Shown here: positions 1,038 through 17,148 of the stretch, in pieces
Layout: each line of letters opens with the position of its first letter
Position numbering within the stretch: the stretch's first letter is position 1
Source: a virus
Taxonomy: Duplodnaviria; Caudoviricetes
DNA length: 64,000 nucleotides
Direction: 5' to 3' (one strand)
Virus record (IMG/VR): IMGVR_UViG_3300037247_001786
Location: 396,979 to 460,978 of that record
The notes under the pieces: model-generated
Seen by the model: only the letters and a program-made list of their open reading frames with translations
Told to the model about the DNA's origin: nothing
The model's database searches: none
Translations under genes and position numbers: made by a program

Positions 1038-1063
1038 AGAACTATCAGCACTTCCTCACAATT

Positions 1064-1100: not shown

Positions 1101-1150
1101 GCCAGAGTGTATAAAAATCACTTTTATAGTAGTATGAAAGGAATACTATT

Positions 1151-1750: not shown

Positions 1751-1816
1751 TTTGCCAGAGTGATTATTTTTAAAGGTTATACAAGTGTTAATGTTAATTT
1801 TTGCGGAGTAAATACT

Positions 1817-2215
1817 ATGGGTTATTGTATTGAGTTAAGAGAAGAAAACTTTAAAGTCACCGTTGCTAAAAGTTTAGAGGCTTTTCCTATAGTCATGAAA
1901 TCTATTATTAACGAGAGAAACACAAGTACAATGAGTTTCTCTTGGGTAGATGATGAAGATATTGAAAAAGCTAAATCCTTAACTGACCTTATGACCTCTT
2001 TCCGTTGGGAACCTGATATTGACTCGGAAGGAAATATTATTAGTATTGATTTTTGTGGGGAGAAATTAGGGGATGATAAGATATTATTCGATATAATTGC
2101 TCCTTTTGTAGAAGATGACAGTTATATAGAAATGAGTGGGGAAGATGGTTCGATATGGAGATGGATTTTTAAAGATGGAGAATGTACTGAAAAAGATGCA
2201 ACTATTGTCTTTTAA
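1817..2215 (+). CDS. hypothetical phage protein
   Basis: start moved to MGYC.. after GCGGAG SD. Confidence 0.8.
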   Translation: MGYCIELREENFKVTVAKSLEAFPIVMKSIINERNTSTMSFSWVDDEDIEKAKSLTDLMTSFRWEPDIDSEGNIISIDFCGEKLGDDKILFDIIAPFVEDDSYIEMSGEDGSIWRWIFKDGECTEKDATIVF

Positions 2216-2254
2216 TAATTTGCCAGAGTGATTATTTTTAAAGGTTATATGATT

Positions 2255-2569
2255 ATGGAATTAAAAGAATTAAAAAATGAAACTATATGTTCTGATTGTG
2301 GGGCTGTAATAACCTCTGAATCAAGGAGCAATTTTCACACTAATGGTCACTGGAACGAATATCGAGAGTTTAAGTGCGGTAGAAAAATCCATTTTAGTCC
2401 TAACTTTATGAAGATTATCGTTGAGGTAGAATGTCCTAAAAACCCAACACAGAAACGTAAAATCGCGAAACAAAAAAGACTTGTAAAAGCTATCACTGAA
2501 ATGGTAAACAAGTCAAGAGTTACTAAAGAGTATAAAGAAAGACTCTTACGAGATATAAAATGGTGGTAA
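2255..2569 (+). CDS. hypothetical Cys-rich protein, ATG at element+35
   Basis: CSDC..C motifs; ATG is 35 nt after hexamer 2220. Confidence 0.75.
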   Translation: MELKELKNETICSDCGAVITSESRSNFHTNGHWNEYREFKCGRKIHFSPNFMKIIVEVECPKNPTQKRKIAKQKRLVKAITEMVNKSRVTKEYKERLLRDIKWW

Positions 2570-2838
2570 AATTTTTAATAAAATCAAATGTTTTTTATCA
2601 AGGACACGGTTCTAGTTCTTGTGGAACTTGCGAAGTAGAGTCAGAGCATAATAAAGAGTTATTAACTCTTTTTTTTCAGGCTCTTAAATCTGCTAAAATG
2701 ATAGAAGACTGGGTGACTATTTCTCAGATATGGTTATCGCAGGGTAAAGTTAATTTTGTATCTAAAACGAGTTTACAAGAAAATGGAGTTATCGCTTACT
2801 ATCATATTTGCCAGAGTGATAAAAATATAAACTTATAG
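2560..2838 (+). CDS. hypothetical protein
   Basis: reads through element 2808 (..HICQSDKNINL). Confidence 0.6.
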   Translation: MVVKFLIKSNVFYQGHGSSSCGTCEVESEHNKELLTLFFQALKSAKMIEDWVTISQIWLSQGKVNFVSKTSLQENGVIAYYHICQSDKNINL

Positions 2839-2872
2839 AATTGTTAATTGAAACTTATTGGAGTTTAAGACG

Positions 2873-3217
2873 ATGGGAACAAGAAAAAAAAGAAATAAGG
2901 ATATTTGGGATACCTCTAATTCGGATTGTCATGTTCCCTATACTGACGAAGACATAGAATTAATTCTTCATCAATTACCTATTCCTAGTAATTGTGAATT
3001 ACTGGGAAAAGCTTTAAAAAGGTCATCAGGAGCCATCCGACAAGTTTTTGAAAAAGCTTATATGCCTCATTCGGAAGCAAAAAATCTTACTGTTGGTAAA
3101 AATAGAGTTGAGAGTTCATATAATATACAGATACAAAAAATATCTAAAAAGCTGAGGCTTATTAGAGGGTATAACGTTTTTAAATACCAGGGCAAGAAAG
3201 ACTCTTACGAGATATAA
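2873..3217 (+). CDS. hypothetical protein, possible helix-turn-helix
   Basis: YTDEDIELIL..LGKALKRSSGAI pattern; GGAG SD. Confidence 0.65.
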   Translation: MGTRKKRNKDIWDTSNSDCHVPYTDEDIELILHQLPIPSNCELLGKALKRSSGAIRQVFEKAYMPHSEAKNLTVGKNRVESSYNIQIQKISKKLRLIRGYNVFKYQGKKDSYEI

Positions 3218-3272
3218 AATGGTGGTAATGAATTAGGTAATATCAATTTTAATTAGGTAAAGGAATTAGGTA

Positions 3273-3947
3273 ATGTCCAATTCAGCTTATATAGAAACAT
3301 TCAAAAAGACCAGTTTATGCTCTGGAGAAACTCATTTCATAATTGACGTACAAGACAATCATGGTTCGGTTTCTCTCGTCACTCCAGAAAAAGACATATC
3401 AGAAGAAGATATGGAACTTCTTCAATATGTCAGAAAACAAGTTGAGAATAGAGACGAACACGGTTCAGATTGTGATATTATATTTGATATATTTGAATAT
3501 ATTGATAGCGGCGAAATAGGGATTAACATAAACAATACCTATTATGACTGGGACGATATAAAAGAGTTTATGACTGGGGAAGAAGTAGAAATTTCTGAAA
3601 TAGATAGAATCAATCCTTTCTCGTTATTTTTTATTGGTGATACCATTTATACCAACGAGAATTATGACCTTAAAAAGGTGGAAAAAGCCGTAGGTATATC
3701 TAATGATATAATGCAAATCCTCAATAAATTGGCAAAAGATATTCTCGAAGTCGCCACATCGGTTCAACACCTATTAGTGTACGCTGCTAAAAAGATAGAA
3801 GCATTTGGCAACGAGGGGGTAGGAGTTGGAGACACCGCCACAGATGAATTGATAGCCGAATACTTGGAGAACAAGTTAAAAGGAAAATTCTCTAAGAAAG
3901 ATAGGTCGGAGATAGGGCAAGACTTCTATTATATGTATCATAGGTAA
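3273..3947 (+). CDS. hypothetical acidic protein
   Basis: 224 aa ORF; stop abuts element 3949. Confidence 0.8.
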   Translation: MSNSAYIETFKKTSLCSGETHFIIDVQDNHGSVSLVTPEKDISEEDMELLQYVRKQVENRDEHGSDCDIIFDIFEYIDSGEIGININNTYYDWDDIKEFMTGEEVEISEIDRINPFSLFFIGDTIYTNENYDLKKVEKAVGISNDIMQILNKLAKDILEVATSVQHLLVYAAKKIEAFGNEGVGVGDTATDELIAEYLENKLKGKFSKKDRSEIGQDFYYMYHR

Positions 3948-3983
3948 TTTGCCAGAGTGAAGAAAAATAAGGTTTATAGTATT

Positions 3984-4214
3984 ATGAACGCACAATTAGC
4001 GAATTTGTTTAGTTATATTAAGAACCTGACTGTTGTTGTTTTTTGGATAGATTCAACAGTTAAAGGAGATATATATCATCGTTTATCCGAAGTTAGAGGA
4101 GAAGATGATGAACTGAAAGCATTTTTTGACGATAATACAGATAGGTATGTTGACTTGTATAGTGTTGATTTTAATGATATAAGAGTTTATCAGAAAGTAG
4201 ATTGGTTAATATGA
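3984..4214 (+). CDS. hypothetical protein, ATG at element+35
   Basis: ATG is 35 nt after hexamer 3949. Confidence 0.7.
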   Translation: MNAQLANLFSYIKNLTVVVFWIDSTVKGDIYHRLSEVRGEDDELKAFFDDNTDRYVDLYSVDFNDIRVYQKVDWLI

Positions 4215-4702
4215 AAAAAGGTACACTAACAACAGTATTTGGCAATGTAACTAAACCTCAATTTAGCAATATGAGCGAAGTCGCTATTATCCCTCATTGT
4301 TGCAACACTCTCGGAGTTATGGGGGCTGGCGTTGCACTCGCACTCAAAAACAAATGGCCCGAAGTATATGAAACATATAAAAGACATCTTATGGGTCTCG
4401 GAAATGCTTCTTTTGTCGTTACAGAAGAACTTGACGAAAATGTAAGAGTTATGGTTGCCAATATGATAGGTCAAGATGGCACCGTCTCTGCTGACAATCC
4501 TAAACCTGTCAAGTATTGGGCTTTAGCCTCTGCAATGAAAATAGTCTTGGCAGAGTGTCAAGCATTCCCTAATTCGGTTATACATACTCCTAAATTCGGT
4601 TCGGATTTGGCTGGAGGGGACTGGAATTTCATCTTGGAATTGATAAGAGAAATCTGGCTCGAAAATGGTATTGATGTTATTGTCTATGAATTTAGAGGGT
4701 AA
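4211..4702 (+). CDS. Macro domain protein (Poa1p/DarG-like ADP-ribose hydrolase)
   Basis: IIPHCCNTLGVMGAGVALAL..WP and IHTPKFGSDLAGGDW motifs. Confidence 0.9.
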   Translation: MKKGTLTTVFGNVTKPQFSNMSEVAIIPHCCNTLGVMGAGVALALKNKWPEVYETYKRHLMGLGNASFVVTEELDENVRVMVANMIGQDGTVSADNPKPVKYWALASAMKIVLAECQAFPNSVIHTPKFGSDLAGGDWNFILELIREIWLENGIDVIVYEFRG

Positions 4703-4704
4703 TT

Positions 4705-5001
4705 ATGGTACCGTTAATCGAATTATGTACATGGCAAGGTTGTCAAGGCTGGCAAGGCGTTACTTGTTCTTGCGGAGCTACTCATAATATTATGGTTAAT
4801 AACCCCTGTTTTCATTGCGAAAGATGTGGGGGGTTTAATACTCTTTCTTGGTCTCATCACCAATTCTGTCACCGCAAACCAGATTATGGATGGAACAGGT
4901 CTGTTATAGGTTGGGCTATGAGAAATTACTCTTGGTATAGAGACTCTTTTAAAGAGACATCTATAATGTTAGAGAAGCTGAATAAGAGACTTGCATCATA
5001 A
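4705..5001 (+). CDS. hypothetical Zn-ribbon protein
   Basis: CSCG and CERCG motifs; stop abuts element 5003. Confidence 0.7.
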   Translation: MVPLIELCTWQGCQGWQGVTCSCGATHNIMVNNPCFHCERCGGFNTLSWSHHQFCHRKPDYGWNRSVIGWAMRNYSWYRDSFKETSIMLEKLNKRLAS

Positions 5002-5066
5002 TTTGCCAGAGTGACAAAAATTTAATCTTATGTGAGTGTTGATAATACTTATATTGAGGAACAAAA

Positions 5067-5420
5067 ATGAAAGAATTTCATAAAATTACAATAGGTTTTG
5101 TAGTACAAAAGTATACAACACTTGATAATGATACAATGATATGCACCGAACAAACTTTTGTAGCTGGCGATCAAGTTACCTATGAGGATTTAGAGGGTAA
5201 AGTTATTGAAGTTGACCCCAATAAAGAGGTTTGTTGTCCTTTCGGAATGCGAACACCGAGACCTATACCTAACACCGAGTTTGAACGATGGTATGCCTCT
5301 ATGAAAAGAGATAGTGGACTTCATCTACATTTTAGGGATGTTCTTGATATGAATCCCGACTATGAACTGACTTTCAGAGAATGGGCTAAAAAGTATTATA
5401 AAGAGGCAGTTGATATTTAA
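5067..5420 (+). CDS. hypothetical protein
   Basis: GAGG SD after element leader. Confidence 0.8.
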   Translation: MKEFHKITIGFVVQKYTTLDNDTMICTEQTFVAGDQVTYEDLEGKVIEVDPNKEVCCPFGMRTPRPIPNTEFERWYASMKRDSGLHLHFRDVLDMNPDYELTFREWAKKYYKEAVDI

Positions 5421-5438
5421 TTATCGCGGAAAAATATA

Positions 5439-5597
5439 ATGGCTAAAAAGAAGATAAATAAATGTAGACACTTTAATGATGATGGTAAAGAGATTACTAC
5501 TCCCTGCGAACATAAAGACGATGATGGTTGCTGCGGCTTGCCTAGTTCAGAGGGATGGATGGTTAAATGTCCTGGCAATGAAAATTATACGAGATAA
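5439..5597 (+). CDS. small Cys-rich protein (52 aa, not in ORF track)
   Basis: MAKKKINKCRHF..; GCGGA SD. Confidence 0.55.
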   Translation: MAKKKINKCRHFNDDGKEITTPCEHKDDDGCCGLPSSEGWMVKCPGNENYTR

Positions 5598-5599
5598 CT

Positions 5600-5884
5600 A
5601 TGAAAGTAGATATAGAAATTACAAAAGATTGCTATCTCATTCTCTGTTTAGGTATGGGTAATGTAGATATACTTCCTGATTTAAATAAAAAGGGTAAAAT
5701 CTATAAAGATGTTGAGTATGATGAGAGTATTAAAAAAATAACATCTTTAGACCTTAAAAAAGAATTAGAGAAACATGGAGTAGGAATAGCTTTTATGGCT
5801 GATACCAATTATGAATATGAGAGTATAATTTTACAATGCCCTCAAAGTGCATTAGTTCCTGTTGGATGTTTCAAGATAATATAA
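5600..5884 (+). CDS. hypothetical protein
   Basis: stop abuts element 5886. Confidence 0.7.
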   Translation: MKVDIEITKDCYLILCLGMGNVDILPDLNKKGKIYKDVEYDESIKKITSLDLKKELEKHGVGIAFMADTNYEYESIILQCPQSALVPVGCFKII

Positions 5885-5955
5885 TTTGCCAGAGTGTTAA
5901 AAAATAACTCTTATATAGGTAGTTAGTTAATAATTACTTATATAGGAGTTTTCTT

Positions 5956-6720
5956 ATGGGCTGGATGTTCACATTTGATCATACAAGTCGATCACGTTGT
6001 ATCGACGATAGGATTAAGGATTGGGATACAAGACCTTTTCTAAAAGAAGAAGATAAGGTATATCATCTATCTACCTGTTTAAAGCAATGTTATAGGGGCA
6101 ATGCCTATTCTGGTGTACTTTGGAGTGTTCGAGAGACAAAGGAATATGACAGGTATACCGACCAGTTGGTACGTTCTGAATTGTGGATAGCTTGTGACCT
6201 GTTAAGATATGATAATAAGGACAAATGTTGGGGATATAAGGATATGTCGGAGAGTGTTGGTCCGAATAGTTATTCTTGTCCTCTTTCTTATCTTGACATG
6301 GTACCTATCCCCAAAAGCGAATATGCCGCTGGATGGAGAGAAGAAGTAAAAAAGTACCACGCAAGTAGAATACCCTCTTTTAAGGTTAAAAAAGATAGTT
6401 TTGTACTTTTAAAAGAAAACTATGGGATTAGAATTTTTAAAATAACCTCATTAAGACCTTTAAAGGGGATAGTTGGTAGTAAAAGAGAATATAGTATCCC
6501 TAGAAAGTCTCTTCTTCGCGAAATAACAAAAGAGGAAATAGATCAAGCGAAGAAAGAATATCAAGAACACCAAGACGGTGGAGAGTGGGGCGAGTGTGCG
6601 GAACAAGGAAGTAGAAGTAAGAATAAAGAGGATGCAATTCTTTATTATAATGATTTCTTATTTGCCAGAGTGAAGAAAAATATAACTTATACGAGTGTTG
6701 ATAATACTGATAATTCATAA
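5956..6720 (+). CDS. DUF6927-like phage/plasmid protein
   Basis: MGW.F start and WGYKDMSESVGPNSYSCPLSYLD motif; C-terminus reads through element 6662. Confidence 0.6.
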   Translation: MGWMFTFDHTSRSRCIDDRIKDWDTRPFLKEEDKVYHLSTCLKQCYRGNAYSGVLWSVRETKEYDRYTDQLVRSELWIACDLLRYDNKDKCWGYKDMSESVGPNSYSCPLSYLDMVPIPKSEYAAGWREEVKKYHASRIPSFKVKKDSFVLLKENYGIRIFKITSLRPLKGIVGSKREYSIPRKSLLREITKEEIDQAKKEYQEHQDGGEWGECAEQGSRSKNKEDAILYYNDFLFARVKKNITYTSVDNTDNS

Positions 6721-6731
6721 AGGATAAAATT

Positions 6732-7040
6732 ATGGGTGCAAATTTTGATTATCAAGTACTAAAAGACCAGAAACTCGAATTGACAGATGAAGAAATCGAG
6801 AAACATGCAGAAGAACTGTTTGAGCATTCTGCTTATCTTTATGGGCACGCTGGATATTCTGGTACGTTAGCTGAAAAGACTGGTGAAGGGGTTACTATCC
6901 ATAGAGATAAGACTTTTGAAACGGATGAGGAAGCGAGTAAATATGTTCTTGATACTCTTGATAACGACAAATGGGGTCCAGCGGATGTAGTCCCTATTGA
7001 GGGTAGAGGTTGGTTTATTGGTGGATGGTGTTCATCTTAA
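6732..7040 (+). CDS. hypothetical phage protein
   Basis: YGHAGYSGT..KWGP..GWFIGGWCSS. Confidence 0.8.
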   Translation: MGANFDYQVLKDQKLELTDEEIEKHAEELFEHSAYLYGHAGYSGTLAEKTGEGVTIHRDKTFETDEEASKYVLDTLDNDKWGPADVVPIEGRGWFIGGWCSS

Positions 7041-7059
7041 TTCTTATTGGAGATATATT

Positions 7060-7248
7060 ATGATGGCTATGGCTTTTATAAAATTTATGTTTGTAGTATT
7101 CTTGTTAGTAGGTTTCCTATCACTGATACTCTCTATATTGGAGTATTTTGGAGAACATATTACTCCTTTCCATAAGAAATATACTTTTGGAGCATGTGCG
7201 GTATCATGGCTTATGGTTATTTCTCTTGCATTGGCATCAGGGGCATAA
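7060..7248 (+). CDS. small membrane protein (2 TM)
   Basis: two hydrophobic stretches; stop abuts element 7250. Confidence 0.7.
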   Translation: MMAMAFIKFMFVVFLLVGFLSLILSILEYFGEHITPFHKKYTFGACAVSWLMVISLALASGA

Positions 7249-7314
7249 CTTGCCAGAGTGGTAAAAAAACAGTCTTATAGAAGTGTTAATAATAACACTG
7301 AATAGGAGTATAAA

Positions 7315-7959
7315 ATGGGAAAAGTAAAACCTACAAAAGAAGTAAAATGTCGTTGCGGTAAAAACTCTATTGTCGAGTTAATTCCAGCAGAAGGATATGT
7401 AAGGGTCACTCCTTTCATGTGCGATTGCGGTAGAACATTCCTTATCAGCGATTACGTTAATGCCATGACTACATATGGAGAGGTAGAACATAAACAATAT
7501 GATGAATTTCTTGAAATGCAAAAAAAAGATGCGACAAGGAAAAAAGTAAGAGATACATCGGATGAAGGACGTAGAAAATATCAATTAGTAGACAAGTGGT
7601 TAAATAGCCTATCAATAGATGCTATAAGTAGAATTGAGGCTCAAAGAGTCTTTACCCAAACTATTGATAAAGAGTTTGTTATCGAAACTATTCTTGAACA
7701 TTGTCGATATGAAGATGATTTATTGGAGAGATTATATGGACAATATCTGGCATGTAATGCTATCTCTATGATGACTACGGATAAAAGAGAGTGGTTTATA
7801 CTAAAAATGGTAGGTTGCGTAGAACCAGTATTAGTAGGTCCAATTTCTACAGAAATAGAAATGAAAGAGCGTTTGGAGAAGTATGCAGATGACCCTAAAG
7901 AGAGTCAGAACTCTCATACTTATTTTTCCGCAAAAAAAGATGCAGATATAAGATTTTAG
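7315..7959 (+). CDS. hypothetical protein with N-terminal Zn ribbon
   Basis: CRCG..CDCG; AGGAG SD. Confidence 0.8.
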   Translation: MGKVKPTKEVKCRCGKNSIVELIPAEGYVRVTPFMCDCGRTFLISDYVNAMTTYGEVEHKQYDEFLEMQKKDATRKKVRDTSDEGRRKYQLVDKWLNSLSIDAISRIEAQRVFTQTIDKEFVIETILEHCRYEDDLLERLYGQYLACNAISMMTTDKREWFILKMVGCVEPVLVGPISTEIEMKERLEKYADDPKESQNSHTYFSAKKDADIRF

Positions 7960-8033
7960 TATTTGCCAGAGTGGTAAAAAAATAGTCTTATAGAGTTGTA
8001 AAGTTAATGTTATAAATTCGATTGGAGAAACAA

Positions 8034-8834
8034 ATGGACGGTTTAATGATTGACACAAAAGACAGCGGTATCGTAACAATAGAAAGAGCATTTTCTATTC
8101 CTGTTCCCGAAGAAACAAAGACGTACAAGCCTGTCGGTAATGAGGCTCTTTGGAAAATGCTCCAGAGAACTGCCAATGTAAGAGGGCTGGAGTTAGGTAC
8201 TCCTGAAATGGGACTCGCTCAAAAGGGACAGCGACTTTTTGGTCAAGTCGAGATTGTCAATCAAGACCATCTTGATAACGAAGTTCGTTTGATGCTTGGT
8301 TTCCGTAACAGCTATAACCGATCGATGTCAGTCGGAATCTGTTTCGGAAGTAAAGTTTTTGTATGTTCTAATATGTGTTTTACGGGATATACTTCTGAAG
8401 ATGAGGATGCGGTAGGTCAAGTTCATCATCGTCATCAAGCAAATGTATGGGAAGGGCTGCAAGAACGACTTAATGAGGCTTTGGATAAGTTCGAGGTATT
8501 CAAGAGCTATCAGAACGACTTTTACAGTAAGCTGAAAGAAAACGAGTTAACGGATGCGGAAGCCCATGATTTGATTATCAATTCAGTTCGGCATGAAGCA
8601 ATTACGGCTAAAGATTGTTTCACAGTTGCCGAAGAATGGGCGTTCCAGAATAGAGGCCCGCAAGATGATAGCGAAGAAGATAGATGGCATAAAGAATTCC
8701 TGCCCAGAAACGCTTGGAGCCTCTTCAATGCTTATACCGAGATACATAAGGGATTTCAGATAAAGAACCCCCTTGAAGCGAATTTGAGGTCTATCAAGAT
8801 GAATAAGTTCTTTCATAACCAGTTTATGAGTTAA
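8034..8834 (+). CDS. DUF932 family phage/plasmid protein
   Basis: FRNSYNRSMSVGICFGSKVFVCSNMCF and NAWSLFNAYTE motifs. Confidence 0.85.
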   Translation: MDGLMIDTKDSGIVTIERAFSIPVPEETKTYKPVGNEALWKMLQRTANVRGLELGTPEMGLAQKGQRLFGQVEIVNQDHLDNEVRLMLGFRNSYNRSMSVGICFGSKVFVCSNMCFTGYTSEDEDAVGQVHHRHQANVWEGLQERLNEALDKFEVFKSYQNDFYSKLKENELTDAEAHDLIINSVRHEAITAKDCFTVAEEWAFQNRGPQDDSEEDRWHKEFLPRNAWSLFNAYTEIHKGFQIKNPLEANLRSIKMNKFFHNQFMS

Positions 8835-8840
8835 GACAAA

Positions 8841-8875
8841 GAAGGGGAAGGACATCGAAAGTTCTTCCCCTTTTT
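8841..8875 (+). terminator. intrinsic terminator
   Basis: GAAGGGGAAGGAC/GTTCTTCCCCTTTTT hairpin after 8834. Confidence 0.85.
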
Positions 8876-8908
8876 GCCAGAGTGGTAAAAATTTAATCTT
8901 ATAGTAGT

Positions 8909-9029
8909 ATGATGAGGCAGTCGGCGGAAAGAGAGTTGCCGTCAGAGCAAAGTTGCGGTCGAACCTACTCAAATATCGTAAAGTGCCTTGCAAGGAAACA
9001 TGATATTCTTTGCCTGCCTCGTTTTTTTT
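8909..9029 (+). ncRNA. candidate small RNA, copy A of a 3-member family
   Basis: sole content between elements 8874 and 9041; closing stem GAGGCAG/CTGCCTC then T8. Confidence 0.6.
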
Positions 9030-9075
9030 GTAATAGTATTTTGCCAGAGTGGTAAAAATTTAATCTTATAGTATT

Positions 9076-9138
9076 GTAGGATGTTCGAGAATTAACGCAT
9101 TCGTGGTGAAAGCCCATTTGAATATCCTGCATATTTTT
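9076..9138 (+). ncRNA. candidate stem-closed small RNA
   Basis: GTAGGATGTT at element+35 pairs with AATATCCTGC (9121-9130), then a T run. Confidence 0.45.
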
Positions 9139-9303
9139 GAAGTAATGAGGTAGTGGCGGTAAATGGTCAAGCTAGCCAATGTCCGATTGCATACGATTTA
9201 CGCATTATGCCTCCTCATTTTTTTTGAAGTAATGAAGTAGTGGCGGTAAGCGACGAACTGCTATCCGATTGCATACGACTCTATGCCTACTTCATTATTT
9301 TTT
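9139..9303 (+). ncRNA. two tandem candidate small RNAs, copies B and C
   Basis: shared GTAATGARGTAGTGGCGGTAA..TCCGATTGCATACGA..TATGCCT..TCATT, each followed by a T run. Confidence 0.65.
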
Positions 9304-9403
9304 ACACTGAAAAAAGATATTGTATAACCAGTATGTAATTTATTATCGGACGTTAAAATAGCATAAGCTGTTTTCGTATATATTGTTAAGTTGGAGTAGT
9401 ATT

Positions 9404-9703
9404 ATGTGTAAGTTAGAATTTTTGGACAAGCATTTAGTATCACTGATAACGATTGTTATCTTGGCAGCAGTACTATTTGCGACAAGTGGTTGTGGGGTAG
9501 TCGATGGGGCTTTGCAAGATATAGCTGGGACAGCTACTGCTTTAAGAGAAATCTCTAAGCCATTAGAAGAGAGAGCAAGAGCTAAAGATGCAGAAAGAAA
9601 TGCAAAGTGGCTTACTATCTGGACTATGCAACAGGAAGATTATAAAGAGATAGGGCATGAACCTAAAAAATTGCCTAAATTTCTTAAATTTGGTAAGAAA
9701 TAG
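9404..9703 (+). CDS. putative lipoprotein
   Basis: hydrophobic N-region with lipobox-like TSG-C; GGAG SD. Confidence 0.7.
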   Translation: MCKLEFLDKHLVSLITIVILAAVLFATSGCGVVDGALQDIAGTATALREISKPLEERARAKDAERNAKWLTIWTMQQEDYKEIGHEPKKLPKFLKFGKK

Positions 9704-9789
9704 ACATTAACAAAAGAGGGTAGTCATATTCTTTTGAGTATTACTATCCTCTTTGTTTTTAATATTAAATTAATTTTAGGAGATTTATA

Positions 9790-9936
9790 ATGTTTAGTTC
9801 CATAGATGGTGGTTTTCAAATAGTTTTAGAAGGTTTATTTACAATGGATTTCTCTTGGTTTTTTATGTTCTGCTTAATAGCGGTACTTAATGTAATTAAA
9901 GTCCCAATAATGATAATAAAGAAGTTGAAAAAATAA
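9790..9936 (+). CDS. small membrane protein (48 aa, not in track)
   Basis: AGGAG SD, hydrophobic core. Confidence 0.6.
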   Translation: MFSSIDGGFQIVLEGLFTMDFSWFFMFCLIAVLNVIKVPIMIIKKLKK

Positions 9937-10050
9937 GGGGTATACGATGGAGATTTACTTTTATTTTCCCTTAACAGTTTTATTTTTTATGAATGTCGTG
10001 AAGAAAATTTTCTAATTGCCAGAGTGGTAAAAAAATAGGTTTATAGTAAT

Positions 10051-10179
10051 ATGAAAATGATTAAAAAATGGCTTATACCTATTATTATAACATTGTTAAT
10101 CGCTCTGTTTGCAGTTTGTTGTGCAAAAAAACAAGTGGAAAAAACAGTGCAACAAGATAGAATCTTAATGGAGAAATAA
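10051..10179 (+). CDS. small secreted/lipoprotein-like peptide (42 aa), ATG at element+35
   Basis: MKMIKKWLIPIIITLLIALFAVCC.. Confidence 0.6.
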   Translation: MKMIKKWLIPIIITLLIALFAVCCAKKQVEKTVQQDRILMEK

Positions 10180-10180
10180 A

Positions 10181-10351
10181 ATGATTTGCCCATATTGTAT
10201 AAAAGAAATTAGTATGTTCGCGACAAAATGTCCTTATTGTCACAGTGCAGTTCAGTATGATGCTGGCTCCGAGCTTAAAGATTGTTTTAAGGCACTTGTT
10301 ATTATGGTAATAGTAGGTATAATTTTATGGGCGATATTGTCGGCGGTATAA
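10181..10351 (+). CDS. double Zn-ribbon membrane peptide (56 aa)
   Basis: CPYC..CPYC then TM helix; stop abuts element 10353. Confidence 0.7.
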   Translation: MICPYCIKEISMFATKCPYCHSAVQYDAGSELKDCFKALVIMVIVGIILWAILSAV

Positions 10352-10427
10352 GTTGCCAGAGTGGTAAAAAAATAGTCTTATAGTATTATAAAGTTAATAT
10401 CTTGAATTTTGATTAGGAGCTGAAAAA

Positions 10428-11162
10428 ATGAGAAAAATAATGAGCGATGATAACACTGTTTGGGATGAACGGAAAACAGATTTTACTGAACCATTGAGGA
10501 AAAAATCGGATGGTAAGCGATCAGCAGTTGCGGGGATTATTGTCCTATTAGGGATTATCTTGATATTTGGTATATGCTTTGTAGTGTCACGGATTACGAC
10601 GGTTCAAGATGATCAATGGGCTGTTCGGCAACATATGAATGGGGATATAGAGGTTATAGAAGGTCCAGGAGTTTATCTTCCCTTGTTTAGCAAAATATGG
10701 ATATATCCTCTTAAAATAACAGTTGAATATAAAACAACCGCTTATTTTAACGATACTGAGGCAAGAGAGGTGAAAACGCTCTGCCGAGTAGAATTACCCG
10801 AAGATAATACTGATAGAGTATCTCTTCATAAAGGACTTTCAGGAGACATATTTAATGTATATCCAATAGTTAGGGCTGCTGTTGGCAATTCGATTAAATC
10901 AATTGCCCCTATTATGAGTACAAATGAGATTGTCTATCACCGCAGAGCGGAATTTTGCGAATTAGTATATCGTCAATTAAAAGAAGGTCTTTTTCTCCAA
11001 CATAGTTCTAGTAAAATCATTGACGGTAAAAACGTCCTTATGTCTACAATCCAAAAGGATGAAAACGGAGACTATATCCCTATGAGCGACGCTATATTAG
11101 AGAGAATGGGATTGAATGTATCGCTTTTTAGCATCACCTCAATAGGCGATTTGCCAGAGTGA
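10428..11162 (+). CDS. SPFH/band 7-like membrane protein, apparently C-terminally truncated
   Basis: single TM then beta/alpha SPFH-like pattern (AVRQH.NG.IEVIEGPGVY..RRAEF..LKEG); ends GD-LPE* inside element 11151. Confidence 0.65.
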   Translation: MRKIMSDDNTVWDERKTDFTEPLRKKSDGKRSAVAGIIVLLGIILIFGICFVVSRITTVQDDQWAVRQHMNGDIEVIEGPGVYLPLFSKIWIYPLKITVEYKTTAYFNDTEAREVKTLCRVELPEDNTDRVSLHKGLSGDIFNVYPIVRAAVGNSIKSIAPIMSTNEIVYHRRAEFCELVYRQLKEGLFLQHSSSKIIDGKNVLMSTIQKDENGDYIPMSDAILERMGLNVSLFSITSIGDLPE

Positions 11163-11185
11163 CAAAAAAATAGTCTTATAGTATT

Positions 11186-11335
11186 ATGAAGCCGAAAAAA
11201 GAAAAACATATTACTTCGAGAGTTAGGAAAGAGAACAAGACAGATAGAGGCGATCTACATACAAAGGTCATACCTGATAAAAAGAAAAAAGTGAATAAAG
11301 AAAAATGTCGAGGAAAGATAGAAGAAAATGAATGA
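11186..11335 (+). CDS. small basic protein (49 aa), ATG at element+35
   Basis: MKPKKEKHITSRVRK..; overlaps next start. Confidence 0.6.
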   Translation: MKPKKEKHITSRVRKENKTDRGDLHTKVIPDKKKKVNKEKCRGKIEENE

Positions 11336-11615
11336 AAAACTTTTCCCATTCCAGGTGAGCGAACCCCGCAAAATGACTATATTAGAACAAGTTTTTTGTA
11401 TGGTTTATCTTGCGACCAGTAAAACTCTAAAAGAATTGAGACGATACCAGTCTTTAGTTGAAAAACAATTTATTTTAGCTACTCAAAATAATTGTGGGGA
11501 AAAATCATTCAAAAATTTAGAGGCGATGCAACACTGTTATGATGCTGCCGTAGCTTATCAACAATTCGATGATGATTTCTGGTTAGCTTTTATAGATACA
11601 TCTGATAGAACCTAA
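11328..11615 (+). CDS. hypothetical protein
   Basis: 95 aa ORF. Confidence 0.7.
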   Translation: MNEKLFPFQVSEPRKMTILEQVFCMVYLATSKTLKELRRYQSLVEKQFILATQNNCGEKSFKNLEAMQHCYDAAVAYQQFDDDFWLAFIDTSDRT

Positions 11616-11692
11616 AATGGTTTGGATTATTTGCCAGAGTAGTAAAAATTTAATTTTATAGAAGTGTTAATAATACTTTTAAGGAAAAGAAA

Positions 11693-12040
11693 ATGATTGA
11701 AGTTACTACTAATGAACCGATGGTTATAGAAGTAAGACATATAATGCACAAACATTTCGAGATTGAAGTTAAAATTGACAATCAGCCTCATGATCTCAGC
11801 ATTTCGATTATATCGGAAGAAGATGAAGAAGGGGAAGATACGGAGTTGGTTCGTATCAGAGTTGACGATAGGACTTTCACCGTTGGAGAAAAAGAAGATG
11901 TTGCAGAGAAACTTAACGGACATCTTGGAGTCTGGTTCGATAGTAAATATCCTTTGTATCAGGTAGAAAAAACTAAAGAAACTCTTGACGATGTTTTTGA
12001 TACTATTTGGGAATATCTCGAAGAAAAAGACCTATGCTAA
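11693..12040 (+). CDS. hypothetical acidic protein
   Basis: AAGGA SD; stop abuts element 12042. Confidence 0.8.
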   Translation: MIEVTTNEPMVIEVRHIMHKHFEIEVKIDNQPHDLSISIISEEDEEGEDTELVRIRVDDRTFTVGEKEDVAEKLNGHLGVWFDSKYPLYQVEKTKETLDDVFDTIWEYLEEKDLC

Positions 12041-12076
12041 TTTGCCAGAGTGAAGAAAAACTAAGGTTATATCATT

Positions 12077-12763
12077 ATGAAACATGCAAACATAGACAAT
12101 AGACTAATGAGTAATGGGGCGGTAGCGTTCAAAGAGGGATTAGGTTGGTTCGGACTGCACCACATAGGAGACCCTACTCCGTCAATATTGGGGGCACAGG
12201 TATGGAGACATCTACAAGAAGATATACATTATCTGAAAAGTATCAGAAAGAGGTTACTCGCTTATAAATCTTGGGATGAATATATTAACGATGGACTTTG
12301 TCCCTATTGCGGTAAATATGATAAGGGGATGCCGGTCGCAATTCATCCCGAATTATATAGCAAGACAAACCAGATAGGGCTATATCTACCTGACCCAGAA
12401 GCAACAGACTCAAAGACAACGCTCGCTACTGACCCAGAAGCGAAACAGCATAAACATATTAAACACAGGAATCTTATATCTGCTGATAATGCTAAAGAAG
12501 ATGGAGTTTTCATAGAATGGGTATATGTTATAGACCCTTTAAGTTATGAATTAAATATACTGAAATCTGTTAGAGGAGAAGGCACCCACGTTCAATCTGT
12601 ATTCGGAGGAATGAAACTATATAACTATCAATATATTTCAGTAAGAAAATGTGAACTTCTTCGGAAAGAACAATCTTGGGAGCCTGATTGGGAAGAAATA
12701 GAAGAAAAAGGTAAAAAATTGGCGACAGGATTTTACCATAAATATACGAGGCAGGCAAAATGA
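12077..12763 (+). CDS. hypothetical protein, ATG at element+35
   Basis: 228 aa ORF. Confidence 0.8.
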   Translation: MKHANIDNRLMSNGAVAFKEGLGWFGLHHIGDPTPSILGAQVWRHLQEDIHYLKSIRKRLLAYKSWDEYINDGLCPYCGKYDKGMPVAIHPELYSKTNQIGLYLPDPEATDSKTTLATDPEAKQHKHIKHRNLISADNAKEDGVFIEWVYVIDPLSYELNILKSVRGEGTHVQSVFGGMKLYNYQYISVRKCELLRKEQSWEPDWEEIEEKGKKLATGFYHKYTRQAK

Positions 12764-12936
12764 AAGGCAAAACATATAATAGTATAATATTGGGTATTGG
12801 AATAACAACTGTGATTTTCGCTCTTCTAACTATCCTTAATCATTTTTTTCTTATACCTGCTGTTGTAGGACTATTATGTATGTTGGGTTTCGGTTTTACG
12901 TTTCAATATGATATAGATGATGAAGACTATCTTTAA
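12760..12936 (+). CDS. small membrane protein (58 aa, not in track)
   Basis: two hydrophobic stretches; ATGA overlap with upstream stop. Confidence 0.6.
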   Translation: MKGKTYNSIILGIGITTVIFALLTILNHFFLIPAVVGLLCMLGFGFTFQYDIDDEDYL

Positions 12937-12950
12937 GGAGAATTAAAATA

Positions 12951-13238
12951 ATGTTTATTGAGATAATAAGAGAAGCAAAAGATAGGCTATATAGTAATTA
13001 TTGGAGATTTATGATATCCACAGATACTCCAAAAATAAAAGTAACTTTATGGGAATTTCGTAAAAGAAGTAGAAGAACTACTAGATGCCAGTGGGTATCA
13101 GAACATACTTACACTTCGTTAGATAGGAGACATAATAACCTCAAAAAGGGAGATTTTATAATTCCAGAAGATGTGGATAAAGAATTGAAAGAGAAGTTAA
13201 ATAAGATGGTATCAGAGATTGAAGTAGAAATAAGATAA
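12951..13238 (+). CDS. hypothetical protein
   Basis: AAGGAG SD; stop abuts element 13240. Confidence 0.8.
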   Translation: MFIEIIREAKDRLYSNYWRFMISTDTPKIKVTLWEFRKRSRRTTRCQWVSEHTYTSLDRRHNNLKKGDFIIPEDVDKELKEKLNKMVSEIEVEIR

Positions 13239-13306
13239 TTTGCCAGAGTGGGTAAAAATCTAATTTATAGTATTGTAAAGAATAATATAATACTGGAGTT
13301 AAAACG

Positions 13307-14002
13307 ATGTATAGAGAAGGCCAGAAAATAATTACTAAAAGTAACGAACACGATGAAAACTATCGAGTTGGTATTTTCGTTGCATATAATGACGCACTGA
13401 AAAGTCCTGATAATATTCCTATGATAGAAATAGAGGGTATCACTTATACTTGTTTCGGTATAACTATGCCTTTCACAACCAGTCTTACTGCAAGACTCGA
13501 TAAACTTACTCCAAAACATCAATGGGAATTTCTTTGTGCTATTAAGAGTTGGGATAGCGGCAATCAGTTTATCATTATGAGAGGGTTGCCGGGAAGTGGA
13601 AAATCCACTCTTGCCAGAAAGTTAGCTGGTCTAACTGGTCAAGTTTTTAGTACAGATGATTTCTTTTCTATGACGGGAGAGTATATCTTTAATCCTACAC
13701 GACTTGGCAAGGCTCATAAATGGAATCAGAATAGGTCAAAGGCTGCTTTCTCTGCTAATATACCTATTATTGTAATTGATAACACTAACACTACGATTAG
13801 CGAAATGAGAAATTATCTGCCTCATATCGAATTGGCTCGACTTTATGGTTATCAAGTTTTTATTGCAGAACCAGATACAGATTGGCGTTTTAACGTCGAT
13901 GAATTGGTACTTAAAAATTCTCATGGCGTACCTAAAGAAGCAATACAAAGGATGGCTGATAGGTATGCTCACGATGTTAGGTTGGAAGATATTTTGTTTT
14001 AA
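13307..14002 (+). CDS. N4BP2-like/AAA_33 P-loop polynucleotide kinase with unknown N-terminal domain
   Basis: IMRGLPGSGKSTLA Walker A, STDDFF, HKWNQ, VIDNTN. Confidence 0.85.
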   Translation: MYREGQKIITKSNEHDENYRVGIFVAYNDALKSPDNIPMIEIEGITYTCFGITMPFTTSLTARLDKLTPKHQWEFLCAIKSWDSGNQFIIMRGLPGSGKSTLARKLAGLTGQVFSTDDFFSMTGEYIFNPTRLGKAHKWNQNRSKAAFSANIPIIVIDNTNTTISEMRNYLPHIELARLYGYQVFIAEPDTDWRFNVDELVLKNSHGVPKEAIQRMADRYAHDVRLEDILF

Positions 14003-14027
14003 GGTTTTCATTTTTAACTCCTCTAGG

Positions 14028-14060
14028 AAAGCTCTTGCGGACTCAACGCAAGGGCTTTTT
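14028..14060 (+). terminator. intrinsic terminator
   Basis: AAAGCTCTTGCG/CGCAAGGGCTTT hairpin plus Ts. Confidence 0.85.
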
Positions 14061-14127
14061 ATTTGCCAGAGTAGTAAAAAATTAGTATTATAGAAGTGTT
14101 AATACTAACACTGAATAGGAGTATATA

Positions 14128-14433
14128 ATGCCAGAAAGAGCCGAAAACGAAAGATGTAAAGAGTGTATCTGGTGGGAAAGAGATCATAAAAACAAAACAG
14201 TGAGAGTTGCTCGCGAGGTTTGCAATTCAGGATATCAAACTAGCCTTGTCCCACAGAAGACGGGAGAATGTCGTCATGATTTGCCACAATTAGCAATCGA
14301 ATCTAAAGATGTATCAGCAGATTTTGAAAGATTCTCTACGGTTGTAAAGACCACTAAAACGGTATGGCCTGCCACAAGAGAAAATGAATGGTGCGGACAG
14401 TTTTGCCAGAGTGAAGAAAAAACTACTTTATAG
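14128..14433 (+). CDS. hypothetical Cys-rich protein
   Basis: CKECIWW..GECR..WPAT..WCG; reads through element 14403. Confidence 0.75.
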   Translation: MPERAENERCKECIWWERDHKNKTVRVAREVCNSGYQTSLVPQKTGECRHDLPQLAIESKDVSADFERFSTVVKTTKTVWPATRENEWCGQFCQSEEKTTL

Positions 14434-14467
14434 AAGTGTTAATAATAACACCGAGTTGGAGTTTATA

Positions 14468-14821
14468 ATGCTTTATTTTGAACAGTGGAGACAATCTCGA
14501 AGGCTACCCGAAAAAGGGGATGTTATATATGTTATCCCTATTCGATATTGGGAACCAGATGAATATACTCCTGAAAAGTTCACGGTAGAAAAAGCGTATA
14601 TACAAGAAACAGGTGGTAGATTAACCCTTTATGGACAATATGAGAAAGAAAAGCCCGATACTCCTATGTATGCGGCTAAAGATTGTGATGCTCAATGGTA
14701 TTGGGATTATGAGAGTGCCAGAAAAGTACAGCTTTTATTACATCAAATATATGAGGTAGTTTCACATGACGACGCTGCCCATATAGTAGAAAAGATATTG
14801 AGAGAAGAATTGCCAGAGTGA
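14468..14821 (+). CDS. hypothetical protein
   Basis: GGAG SD; ends LPE* in element 14810. Confidence 0.8.
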   Translation: MLYFEQWRQSRRLPEKGDVIYVIPIRYWEPDEYTPEKFTVEKAYIQETGGRLTLYGQYEKEKPDTPMYAAKDCDAQWYWDYESARKVQLLLHQIYEVVSHDDAAHIVEKILREELPE

Positions 14822-14874
14822 AGAAAAAACTAATTTACAGAAGTGTTAATAATAATTTAATTGGAGATAGTAAA

Positions 14875-15165
14875 ATGAGTGTAACAAAGATAATTACAGT
14901 AATGTTTTGTATTCTATCGTTGATCGTAGGATTCGTACTCGGCGGACTTGTTGATAATTTCCGTTATGAAACAGTTGTTGCGGAAAAAGACGCACTAAGA
15001 AAAGACCTATTGTATAACATAGGATTGCTTACCGTAACACAAGATGCTCTTATAAGTAGGGGGCGTGCTTTAGAAGAGGTTATATATGATAATATGAAAT
15101 ATTTCACGATAATAGAGGCGTATAAAAAGCGAGATAATTTCGACCCTAACGATTTGCCAGAGTAG
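14875..15165 (+). CDS. N-terminally anchored membrane protein
   Basis: TM helix; ends LPE* in element 15154. Confidence 0.75.
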   Translation: MSVTKIITVMFCILSLIVGFVLGGLVDNFRYETVVAEKDALRKDLLYNIGLLTVTQDALISRGRALEEVIYDNMKYFTIIEAYKKRDNFDPNDLPE

Positions 15166-15217
15166 CGTTTTTTCTATCTTATAGAAGTGTTAATAATAAC
15201 ACTGAATAGGAGTAATA

Positions 15218-15664
15218 ATGAATTATAAATATGAATGTTCTTGGAGTCCTCACGACGGTTGGCATTTTTCTTTAGGGAAAAAAAGATTATGGGAAGCCAG
15301 TACAGGATATATAGTTGCGGAGATTCACACTTGGAGAGAATACTCGGAAGATAAACTTAAACCTGGACAAAAACATGAGGGGTATAGAAACCACGAACAT
15401 TTTACAGAGTTGGAAGATGCTCTTAACTTTATGAGAACAGGAGAAATCCCTACTTATTATATCGTAAATAGTCGTTTTCAGCCTTTAAGCTATTTTGCCT
15501 CTAATGATTTCGTTACGAAAAAACAGCTTAGATTTAGAAAAAGAGATTGTATCTCTTATAGAAACAAAAAAGAGGCACTAGAATATTTGGCTATCATTCA
15601 AAGTGAATGTAGACAAAAAGGACAAGCACAATCATTAAAAGTAAGTACTTTATGTAAATGGTAA
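15218..15664 (+). CDS. hypothetical protein
   Basis: AGGAG SD. Confidence 0.8.
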   Translation: MNYKYECSWSPHDGWHFSLGKKRLWEASTGYIVAEIHTWREYSEDKLKPGQKHEGYRNHEHFTELEDALNFMRTGEIPTYYIVNSRFQPLSYFASNDFVTKKQLRFRKRDCISYRNKKEALEYLAIIQSECRQKGQAQSLKVSTLCKW

Positions 15665-15703
15665 AAATTTGCCAGAGTAGTAATTTTTCTATCTTATGGT
15701 ATT

Positions 15704-15949
15704 ATGAAAAGAAAACAAGATAAACGAAGAAGAAAACAACGGGCAAAGATTGTCCTTAACTTAACCCAAAAGGTTTTGGATAGTCTTGCTCGGTTAGCAG
15801 TAGGAAAGACACCACCAGAGATCGTCAAGGCTCACGTCGCTTACTATGATACTTGCAACACCGCAGAGCAATTAACCCTTATGGGTATATTCAAAAAAGA
15901 AGAAGATAAAATAATGACAGATATAGCTGAATTTTTTGCGGAGAAATAA
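15704..15949 (+). CDS. hypothetical protein, ATG at element+35
   Basis: no SD; ATG is 35 nt after hexamer 15669. Confidence 0.7.
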   Translation: MKRKQDKRRRKQRAKIVLNLTQKVLDSLARLAVGKTPPEIVKAHVAYYDTCNTAEQLTLMGIFKKEEDKIMTDIAEFFAEK

Positions 15950-15950
15950 A

Positions 15951-16118
15951 ATGGGATTACCTATAAATGGTGTCGTAAATGCTGCTGGCGAAGTATGTAT
16001 CAATACAAAAGATTTGTTGCTATATCTAAATGAGCCTAAAAATAAAGACTTAACAAGAGAAAAAATATGCCTAGTGATAGAAGCGTTTACTAAGGGGATG
16101 CTAAAGAAAAAGTCATAA
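15951..16118 (+). CDS. small hypothetical protein
   Basis: GCGGAG SD; stop abuts element 16119. Confidence 0.7.
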   Translation: MGLPINGVVNAAGEVCINTKDLLLYLNEPKNKDLTREKICLVIEAFTKGMLKKKS

Positions 16119-16185
16119 TTGCCAGAGTGAAGAAAAAACTAATTTATAGAAGTGTTAATACTAACACCGAATAGGAGTATATAAA

Positions 16186-16524
16186 ATGAAGATAGATTAT
16201 TGGGGACTTATTAAGTTTCTTATCGTAGTAGCTATAATATCGTCGTTTATTTGGGCTGTATTTATCTGCGAAACAGGGTGGCATAAAACCACTATGAGAA
16301 CTGCCGACGCGAGAAATAAAGCGTATGCGATCAAGAATGACATCTACGAGGCGAGATTTCCCAAAACAGGAGATACGATAATTCTAAATGGGAAAAAGAT
16401 AGTTATATTGAAAAGTTATATCTGGAGTAGAGAAAGAAGATATGAAGTAAGACAAGAAGATGGAACCATAACCGATGTTATGGGTTCCGAAATCATAGAT
16501 ATAAAACCAATAAAACAGGAGTAA
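16186..16524 (+). CDS. membrane-anchored hypothetical protein
   Basis: N-terminal TM. Confidence 0.75.
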   Translation: MKIDYWGLIKFLIVVAIISSFIWAVFICETGWHKTTMRTADARNKAYAIKNDIYEARFPKTGDTIILNGKKIVILKSYIWSRERRYEVRQEDGTITDVMGSEIIDIKPIKQE

Positions 16525-16528
16525 TAAA

Positions 16529-16732
16529 ATGGAACATCATAAAATCGTAGCGGCAATGATACGAAAACAAGTAGAAGGCGAAGCCGTAAATAGTCACAAA
16601 TTTGGATATATGAGACAATTGGCTGTCGATTTTGCCGATTGGTATGACAAACAAAAGGAACTTTTTTGTCGAGAAGTATTCTTTAGTGGTTGCGGTATTA
16701 AAGAACACCCGTATGGAAAAACGCCAGAGTGA
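16529..16732 (+). CDS. small hypothetical protein
   Basis: AGGAG SD; ends TPE* in element 16721. Confidence 0.75.
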   Translation: MEHHKIVAAMIRKQVEGEAVNSHKFGYMRQLAVDFADWYDKQKELFCREVFFSGCGIKEHPYGKTPE

Positions 16733-16786
16733 TAAAATTTTAATATTATAGTAGTGTTAATAATAACACTAAATTGGAGTAATAAA

Positions 16787-17125: not shown

Positions 17126-17148
17126 CAAAAAATATATCTTAACACTGT

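Follow-up and report, generated by a model that had tools for sequence, protein, structure and literature searches.

Small RNAs of phages are known in several forms. Species 1 and 2 of T4, also called the band C and D RNAs, are small stable RNAs of a lytic phage and are processed from transfer RNA (tRNA) precursors. The put RNA of HK022, which consists of two stem-loops and has no closing stem, makes RNA polymerase ignore terminators, and phage RNA decoys (RNA anti-CRISPRs and pseudo-ToxI repeats) mimic a known host RNA, either a CRISPR repeat or a type III antitoxin. However, descriptions of small RNAs are few for virulent phages and almost absent for metagenomic huge phages. Small RNAs (sRNAs) have been predicted for a few virulent phages only, with unclear function (PMC8244752). 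In this work, we analysed a locus in a 64-kilobase (kb) stretch of DNA, called the window below, which is the final part (396979–460978) of a virus record of 460,978 base pairs (bp) with direct terminal repeats. The closest DNA matches to this phage come from marine-sediment and marine metagenomes. Between 8874 and 9303 of the window, two identical promoter boxes are followed by four hairpin-closed elements, named A, D, B and C, each with a terminal T run. Judging from the comparison with related phages, B and C are members of a real family of small structured RNAs in this marine megaphage lineage, one that has not been described before.

The elements resemble the small RNAs of lytic phages (T4 species 1 and 2, and the predicted sRNAs of phiKZ and PA5oct) in being short, non-coding and located in an early or tRNA-rich part of a large virulent genome, but they have no similarity to them in sequence or structure and would be primary transcripts with a promoter and a terminator of their own. 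Like the put RNAs of HK022, they are paralogous structured RNAs of ~70 nucleotides (nt) lying directly behind early phage promoters, with compensatory differences between the copies; unlike the put RNAs, each copy in the window ends in its own terminator. With the phage RNA decoys they have in common that they are small, phage-encoded and structured, sometimes in tandem, and that their copy number differs between strains, whereas no mimicked RNA was recognised for them and no toxin gene follows. The Ro60-binding Y RNAs and YrlA likewise have paired 5′ and 3′ ends, a 3′ U run, a length of 70–115 nt and paralogues with a constant stem and a variable interior; the RNAs of the window, in contrast, have neither an Rfam match nor an evident bulged Ro-binding helix, and the phage has no TROVE gene. 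The P1-P2-P3 geometry, the size of ~70 nt, the conserved junction strands and the occasional tandem arrangement of the purine-type three-way-junction riboswitch aptamers all recur in B and C, which however lack the J3/1 strand, the conserved loop-loop contact and the Rfam match of those aptamers and are untied to the downstream gene in relatives. Finally, A, B, C and D end in the same way as intrinsic (Rho-independent) terminators, their 3′ end being a stem with a U run right behind it, and the G·U pairs in the stems would confine this activity to the + strand. Different from such terminators, the "loop" here is an interior of 50–95 nt with several helices, in which the junction sequence is conserved and the inner helices covary; the elements are fed by dedicated promoters, and B′, an orthologue of B, uses a separate terminator. 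The locus offers what appears to be a self-contained example of a phage-specific promoter, a folded-domain transcript, a built-in terminator and structure-preserving evolution across three lineages, with no Rfam relative.

Overall organisation of the locus

The promoter-like box is ~35 nt long and consists of TTGCCAGAGTG, then an A run, then TTATAG. There are 25 copies in the window and ~80 at genome 340–428 kb, all on the + strand, where the chance expectation is none. The cassettes headed by the box are of two types. Those of type 1 have an ATG at box position +36, which suggests leaderless genes; those of type 2 have a G at +36, followed by a leader of ~30 nt with a GGAG ribosome site. We infer that transcription starts at +36, that is, at 8909 behind box 1 and at G9076 behind box 2, because the leaderless ATGs and the stem starts fall there. 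The boxes and elements are the following.

8874–8908, + strand: promoter box 1, TTGCCAGAGTGG, A run, TTATAGTA
8909–9029, + strand: RNA A, ~120 nt, closing stem 8911–8920/9014–9023, four-way junction, T8 at 9022–9029
9041–9075, + strand: promoter box 2, same as box 1 over ~35 nt
9076–9138, + strand: RNA D, 14-bp stem 9076–9089/9117–9130 with four G·U pairs, 27-nt loop, T5
9143–9225, + strand: RNA B, three-way junction, T8 at 9218–9225
RNA B, helices: P1 9144–9153/9211–9219 (bulged U 9151), P2 9157–9159/9183–9185, P2b 9164–9167/9175–9178, P3 9189–9193/9206–9210
RNA B, junction strands: J1/2 UGG, J2/3 AUU
9230–9303, + strand: RNA C, paralogue of B, T6 at 9298–9303
RNA C, helices: P1 9230–9240/9287–9297 (perfect 11 bp), P2 9244–9246/9265–9267, P2b 9249–9252/9261–9264, P3 9271–9275/9282–9286

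A preliminary description of this locus had reported three structured copies (A, B and C), each ending in a T run, and all three were recovered, with closing stems followed by T8, T8 and T6. They were said to lie behind two copies of the array element, which holds for the boxes at 8874 and 9041; however, the fourth element, D, had been overlooked, and neither B nor C has its own box. The stem of D begins exactly at +36 behind box 2, in the register of the ATGs of the leaderless genes, and since D sits between box 2 and B, both B and C would be read-through products of the D unit. The stems contain G·U pairs, and therefore the fold is specific to the + strand. When the single sequences were folded and compared with shuffled ones, the fold was significant for C (z score −3.2) and D (z −3.6). 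The GC content of A, B and C is 44–49% (49% in A), against 35% in the background.

The three-way-junction RNA family of B and C

The core shared by B and C consists of the closing stem P1, the strand UGG, the helix P2 (CGG/CCG) with a UA/RU internal loop and the distal helix P2b, the strand AUU, and the helix P3 (GCAUA/UAUGC), which is stacked on P1. Letter for letter, the two have TCCGATTGCATACGA and GTAGTGGCGGTAA in common, and the exact shared segment already noticed in the preliminary description was confirmed as a 15-mer. The family was defined by the closing stem P1, UGG, CGG/CCG, AUU and a P3 of G(C/U)AUA/UAU(G/A)C stacked on P1, as detected by R1, a covariance model of the B/C type. 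R1 scores B at 112 bits and C at 67.6, and it finds two orthologues in related loci, B′ at 107 bits and E at 64, with no other match in the 461-kb genome or the related loci. B′ (L069:4750–4829) lies directly behind the variant box of locus L069, in the same register, and E (L142:2007–2076) is a single copy behind an orthologue of D in locus L142. The 15-nt junction segment is the same in B, C and B′, and its sole change in E is compensated.

The substitutions between the orthologues preserve the structure. B and B′ differ by four substitutions, namely a compensatory change from G-C to A-U (9165/9177, P2b), a change from U·G to C-G (9167, P2b) and one from G-C to G·U (9216, P1). C and E differ by two compensatory changes, from A-U to G-C in P1 and from C-G to U-A in P3, and by one from G-C to G·U in P2b, the remaining changes being confined to L3 and the tail. 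In the two orthologue pairs, pairing is thus kept in all nine stem substitutions, of which six form three compensatory pairs and three are wobble-compatible. For C and E alone, with five substitutions on 42 paired positions including two complete pairs, our combinatorial estimate of the chance probability is ~0.01. When the four sequences are aligned by means of the model, 97.6% of the cells are paired, as against 30–50% with slid partners, and three pairs change on both sides, as against 0–1 in the slid controls. The same junction is predicted independently by RNAalifold.

In near-identical strains from other marine metagenomes, the variation lies mostly in loops (9179, 9279 and indels at 9170–9174), and the variants in the stem still pair: C to T at 9176 gives a G·U in P2b, and C to T at 9177 corresponds to the 3′ half of the compensatory pair between B and B′. 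The loops L2 and L3 are nearly unchanged between B and B′, and L3 is changed between C and E. In the D orthologue (L142:1940–2001) the loop is identical, with one G·U replaced by A-U and one C-G by C·A. The fold energy of B by itself is not significant, and its support therefore comes from the comparison with relatives. B′ has no U run of its own in L069, where a separate hairpin terminator, nearly perfect over 18 bp (z −6.6) and followed by T5, ends the unit; B′ being conserved without a U run, the junction domain is conserved independently of termination.

Taken together, the structural support for the family is good, though not overwhelming, since the set is small and contains paralogues, and we regard B and C as likely to be genuine structured RNAs that do not code for protein. 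The earlier view of an RNA family with a constant scaffold and variable loops stands for B and C, given their orthologues in L069 and L142 with compensatory and wobble changes; A fits it at the level of the scaffold only. In B, C, B′ and E, the frame ATG-ARG-TAG stops after two codons. The 5′ arm of P1, near the presumed 5′ end, is itself this start-stop unit, AUG-AGG-UAG (AUG-AAG-UAG in C), at 9143–9153, 9230–9240, L069:4750–4760 and L142:2007–2017.

A variable slot upstream of a lipoprotein gene

The RNAs occupy a slot between a DUF932 gene upstream (8022–8834, identified with Pfam) and a lipoprotein gene downstream, for which the following features are relevant.

8841–8875, + strand: terminator of the DUF932 gene, simple hairpin and T5, its T run overlapping the first bases of box 1
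8872–9038, + strand: cassette of box 1 and RNA A, 167 bp between identical boxes, presence or absence varying among strains
9304–9403 (leader) and 9404–9703 (gene), + strand: lipoprotein leader and gene, outside the RNAs, fixed downstream neighbour with a box-less leader

The lipoprotein leader and gene are conserved in L069, L070, L071 and L142, and the slot upstream of the leader is filled differently in each phage: by A-D-B-C here, by D-E in L142, by B′ and its terminator in L069, by a short hairpin RNA in L070 and by a small open reading frame (ORF) in L071. It was the lipoprotein gene that, as a synteny anchor, led to the homologues of B and C. The DUF932 anchor did not: 73 homologues of DUF932 were obtained, the seven loci with DNA carry only a plain terminator downstream, and no related locus was obtained when IMG/VR was searched with DUF932.

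A contig from another sample, L143, shows 0 substitutions against 6737–12203 of the window (5.3 kb), and its sole difference is the exact absence of 8872–9038. Recombination between the two identical boxes would leave exactly this gap; an assembly artefact at the repeat is a lesser possibility, but contigs containing A exist in other runs. The claim that the elements are carried as modules is borne out by the slot content and copy number, which vary among relatives, and by the 167-bp unit of box and A that is missing in L143. We propose that the copy-number changes (one or two copies; with or without A) stem from recombination events at the repeated boxes, which would act as handles for adding or removing whole RNA cassettes between otherwise identical genomes.

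Could the four elements be nothing but cis-acting terminators? They would then form a four-fold stack insulating the box-less lipoprotein operon, as one of a different temporal class, from early transcription, and the released RNAs would be functionless. The feature of an intrinsic terminator, a stable stem directly followed by at least five U residues, is present in all four elements of the window (T8 in A, T5 in D, T8 in B and T6 in C). In addition, a T-run terminator stands ahead of the conserved lipoprotein leader in every relative, regardless of the content of the slot, as exemplified by C′ in L069, the short hairpin in L070 and the end of the small ORF in L071, and most other cassettes in the region have no terminator, which would make this a special boundary. 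Yet the terminator feature leaves the conserved interior unexplained: termination requires P1 alone, but conservation and covariation extend to P2, P3 and the junction strands, and B′ is conserved without any U run. Elsewhere a plain hairpin suffices, as at 8841–8875 and in L067 and L068, and two dedicated promoters running directly into terminators would be senseless for mere insulation. We therefore regard this explanation as unlikely, although it deserves to be kept in mind.

The position in front of a gene also brings up cis-regulatory aptamers of the riboswitch or attenuator kind, in which a ligand or protein would stabilise the terminator stem P1 of B and C and so gate read-through from box 2 into the lipoprotein gene, tandem copies sharpening the response. 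A three-way junction of ~70 nt with conserved junction strands and variable distal loops, arranged in tandem upstream of a gene and with P1 abutting the U run, is what such an element would look like; moreover, by eye, the 3′ arm of the terminator hairpin in L069 carries UCGUAUUGC, which could pair, with one bulge, with the 5′ strand of P3 in B′. However, no alternative antiterminator pairing is recognisable in the copies of the window, and no riboswitch of Rfam was matched even at E ≤ 10. The lipoprotein gene keeps its own box-less leader and is present without B or C in L070 and L071, and a small phage lipoprotein gene gives no obvious ligand logic, all of which makes gating of this kind very improbable.

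Two side observations concern the flanks of the slot. The strongly conserved, box-less leader of ~100 nt (9304–9403; L069:4900–5000; L070:3250–3348; L071:590–684; L142:2080–2179) contains GATATTGTATAACCAG and the hairpin AAAACAAC/GTTGTTTT directly before the ribosome site, and it might serve as promoter or leader in a different temporal class. In L061, a 254-kb relative, the slot after DUF932 is filled by a gene of 307 residues on the opposite strand (L061:4839–5762, minus), and a TnpB/IS605 OrfB gene lies 3 kb beyond (L061:8724–8801), so mobile elements occur in the same variable region.

Searches for known families, homologues and targets

With Rfam 15 at gathering thresholds, the whole window gave 0 matches. 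At E ≤ 10, only four weak matches were obtained in 8700–9500, all at 8730–8874 (the 3′ end of DUF932 and its terminator), and none on A, D, B or C, so that the Rfam match named beforehand as evidence against a new family did not appear. ARAGORN found no tRNA or transfer-messenger RNA in the window, nor any in 8861–9330 at an 80% threshold in bacterial mode, and all 36 tRNA genes of the phage are located away from 8874–9303. The lax mitochondrial mode of ARAGORN gave 10 overlapping calls in 470 nt, which were dismissed as junk.

Nor were homologues found outside the related loci. Against 50,697 phage records, blastn gave no match, either in distant mode with 8800–9400 or as megablast with 1–20000. 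Patterns made from the B/C core, the box, the 5′ scaffold and the D loop gave chance or coding matches only in IMG/VR, and the scans of JGI metagenome contigs and of GTDB genome contigs, the latter checked with R1, returned chance matches only. When A, B, C and D were searched with nhmmer against the genome and the related loci, only self-matches, the cross-matches between B and C, and B′ were obtained. A hairpin-like match of L058 and L060 to the 5′ scaffold lies inside an ORF of a T4-like phage and was judged coincidental. A strict descriptor of a long-range stem plus T run gave ~75 mostly AT-rich matches genome-wide and is not discriminating alone.

As for RNAs with a known protein partner, the phage has neither a Ro60/TROVE gene nor an RtcB gene, and the neighbouring proteins belong to no RNA-related Pfam or PHROG family. 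A relationship with Y RNA or YrlA finds no Rfam match, and the TROVE partner gene is absent from the phage. For a type III toxin-antitoxin system of the ToxI kind, the downstream gene would have to be the toxin, but it encodes a signal-peptide lipoprotein with no match in Pfam or PHROG; ToxI-like repeats were ruled out also by size, the three-way junctions being of 87 nt and the repeat units of 34–45 nt. Three short likenesses were set aside as probably due to chance: the 8-nt GGUAGUGG, shared with human Y4 RNA, the anti-Shine-Dalgarno-like CCUCCUUA seen by eye in the 3′ arm of B′, and ACGCAUU, common by eye to the D loop and to L3 of B and E.

In their constant scaffold, variable loops and terminator-type 3′ end, the elements resemble many bacterial sRNAs, and the preliminary description had considered antisense or guide RNAs, besides decoys for RNA-binding defence proteins; the tests made here lent support to none of these ideas. 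As antisense or guide RNAs, they would use L2 and L3 to find transcripts of the host or the phage, or the nucleic acid on which a guided effector acts, with the scaffold as the handle. This idea lost ground in the search for complementarity: when compared with the rest of the 461-kb genome, A, B, C and D gave best matches, complementary or identical, of 12–13 nt, no better than those of shuffled queries. The loops are short (5–12 nt), their near identity between B and B′ together with the change of L3 between C and E gives no clear targeting pattern, and there is no guided nuclease gene nearby. Base pairing as the function of these RNAs therefore seems a poor prospect.

Element A and its reading frame

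The likeness of A to B and C covers ~19 nt at the 5′ end (with one indel and two mismatches), a possible P2 of CGG/CCG, the GCA/UGC base of the last helix, and the 3′ arm. On the junction side its scaffold consists of the stem end, U(C)GG, CGG/CCG and GCA/UGC, and its interior differs from that of B and C. The two compensatory pairs previously reported between A and C are indeed present (GAGGCAG/CTGCCTC in A versus GAAGTAG/CTACTTC in C). With a loose scaffold descriptor, derived in part from A itself, the only matches in ~1 megabase of sequence (both strands of the 461-kb genome plus 13 related loci) were A and C, apart from the 5′ arm of B paired with the 3′ arm of C, and the same in the identical contig L143. 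A was not detected by nhmmer with B and C, and it folds as a four-way junction, not a three-way one. A is only a scaffold-level relative and not a detectable member of the family.

A differs from the other elements also in containing an open frame.

8909–9055, + strand: 48-codon ORF in the leaderless register (box +36), stopping inside box 2 (..LPEW*)

According to the preliminary description there was no convincing protein gene here, and this agrees with the codon usage and the lack of a homologue; what it does not take into account is that the ORF of A starts in the leaderless register. For A only, 8909–9055 might thus be a leaderless gene for a Cys-rich peptide of 48 residues, the RNA fold being incidental. 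Its ATG lies exactly at box +36, like those of at least eight real leaderless genes, and leaderless genes of 42–64 codons are among its neighbours. By our estimate the frame would stay open over 48 codons by chance with a probability of ~0.02–0.09, its stop falls within the next box, as in other genes here, and the fold of RNA A is not significant.

Against this, the codon score of 8909–9055 is −0.12, as compared with +0.11 to +0.38 in eight real genes (half of which are small and leaderless), and the GC content is 49%. The closing stem of 10 bp and the T8 lie inside the frame and would terminate the messenger RNA ahead of the stop codon. The corresponding ATG in B, C, B′ and E meets a stop after two codons, and the open frame of A comes from a U to C change that turns this stop into CAG and is compensated in the 3′ arm. 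One strain variant has a T run 2 nt shorter, which shifts the frame. Furthermore, the ORF is missing from the protein collection, in which its neighbours from this record are present, and gene callers pass over it where they do call neighbours of 42–56 codons. No true homologue was found in that collection or among 1.84 billion representatives, the latter giving only spurious matches to repeat proteins; homologues conserving the 48-codon ORF, which had been named as evidence against an RNA, were thus looked for with no success. 8909–9055 is probably not a gene, and a peptide-coding role for A seems rather unlikely to us.

Proposed role of the RNAs

The proposal below is built on the anatomy of the sequence, the homology of B, C, B′ and E, the structure-preserving substitutions, the polymorphism of the cassettes and the absence of matches to known families, all of which are observed. 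The non-coding reading follows because B, C, B′ and E carry ATG-ARG-TAG and because the ORF of A has non-genic codons and no homologue. We propose that box 1 would produce RNA A, and that box 2 would produce the hairpin RNA D and then, by read-through of the weak T5, B and C in tandem. Each RNA would start at, or at most 2–3 nt from, the first base of its closing stem and end at the U run after the stem, so that the closing stem would double as an intrinsic terminator and give a compact, nuclease-resistant molecule of ~60–120 nt. The constant junction may be the binding site of a host or phage protein, and the RNAs, as sponges, decoys or cofactors, could work in trans at an early stage of infection. 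The constancy of the junction and the drift of the loops lead us to favour recognition by a protein over base pairing.

As a whole, this picture of early, box-driven, self-terminating non-coding RNAs that act in trans through a protein-binding junction in B and C is one that we put forward tentatively, as close to an even call. The protein-binding, trans-acting function taken by itself is possible but somewhat doubtful. In a more specific version, which is distinctly improbable, the conserved three-way junction would be a molecular mimic and, within the first minutes of infection, titrate away a host protein that binds RNA in defence or serves in RNA processing.

Several points weigh against the proposal. 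Only four members of the family are known, from three phage lineages, and two of them are paralogues. Shuffled alignments match the observed covariation score in 7 of 500 cases, and relatedness alone can produce that. A (z −1.7) and B (z −0.3) fold no better than shuffled sequence, and A is undetected by R1 even at E ≤ 10. Relatives of the phage are often without these RNAs and one strain is without A, i.e. the RNAs are dispensable accessories. Transcription start and stop, expression, trans action and protein binding are all inferred from the DNA, and the observations fit other functions in trans as well as protein binding.

What would follow depends on the partner. If the junction binds a host protein, an RNA-based tool of takeover or counter-defence would be added to megaphage biology; if it binds none, B and C would still be a new structured-RNA motif worth an entry in family databases. 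Should the decoy version be true, the duplication of B and C, the hybrid single copy E and the gain and loss of cassette A could be read as traces of an arms race fought through decoy dosage and variants, and the RNAs would represent a new class of RNA-based counter-defence in megaphages.

Variation of the promoter box and further cassettes

The box differs between lineages, being TTTCCAGGCGTT..TGGTA in L069 and L070, CTCCAGAGGTG in L142, TTTCCAGAGGTA in L061 and TTACCAGCATAG in L062. Its downstream portion is retained in the relatives, with TTATAG/GGTA and then GTTAAT, or an ATG near +35/36. The pattern suggests that a phage-specific promoter and the factor recognising it have evolved together.

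Within the box-driven region, 33 of the 36 phage tRNA genes called by ARAGORN cluster at genome 373482–385870. Some of them start directly after a box, and therefore the box would drive stable RNA genes besides small protein genes.

Three more box cassettes in the window are without a credible ORF, at 17114–17400, 20354–20590 and 23352–23570, where the best ORFs have 35, 11 and 7 codons, respectively, and each of them closes with hairpin-T runs. Another box cassette, which starts with ATGGAAGTTGATTGTCAGTTT and ends in a T run, lies at genome 380930–381130 (window −16048, in the tRNA region) and is kept in L142:1555–1690; it could be a leaderless gene of 36 codons or another RNA.

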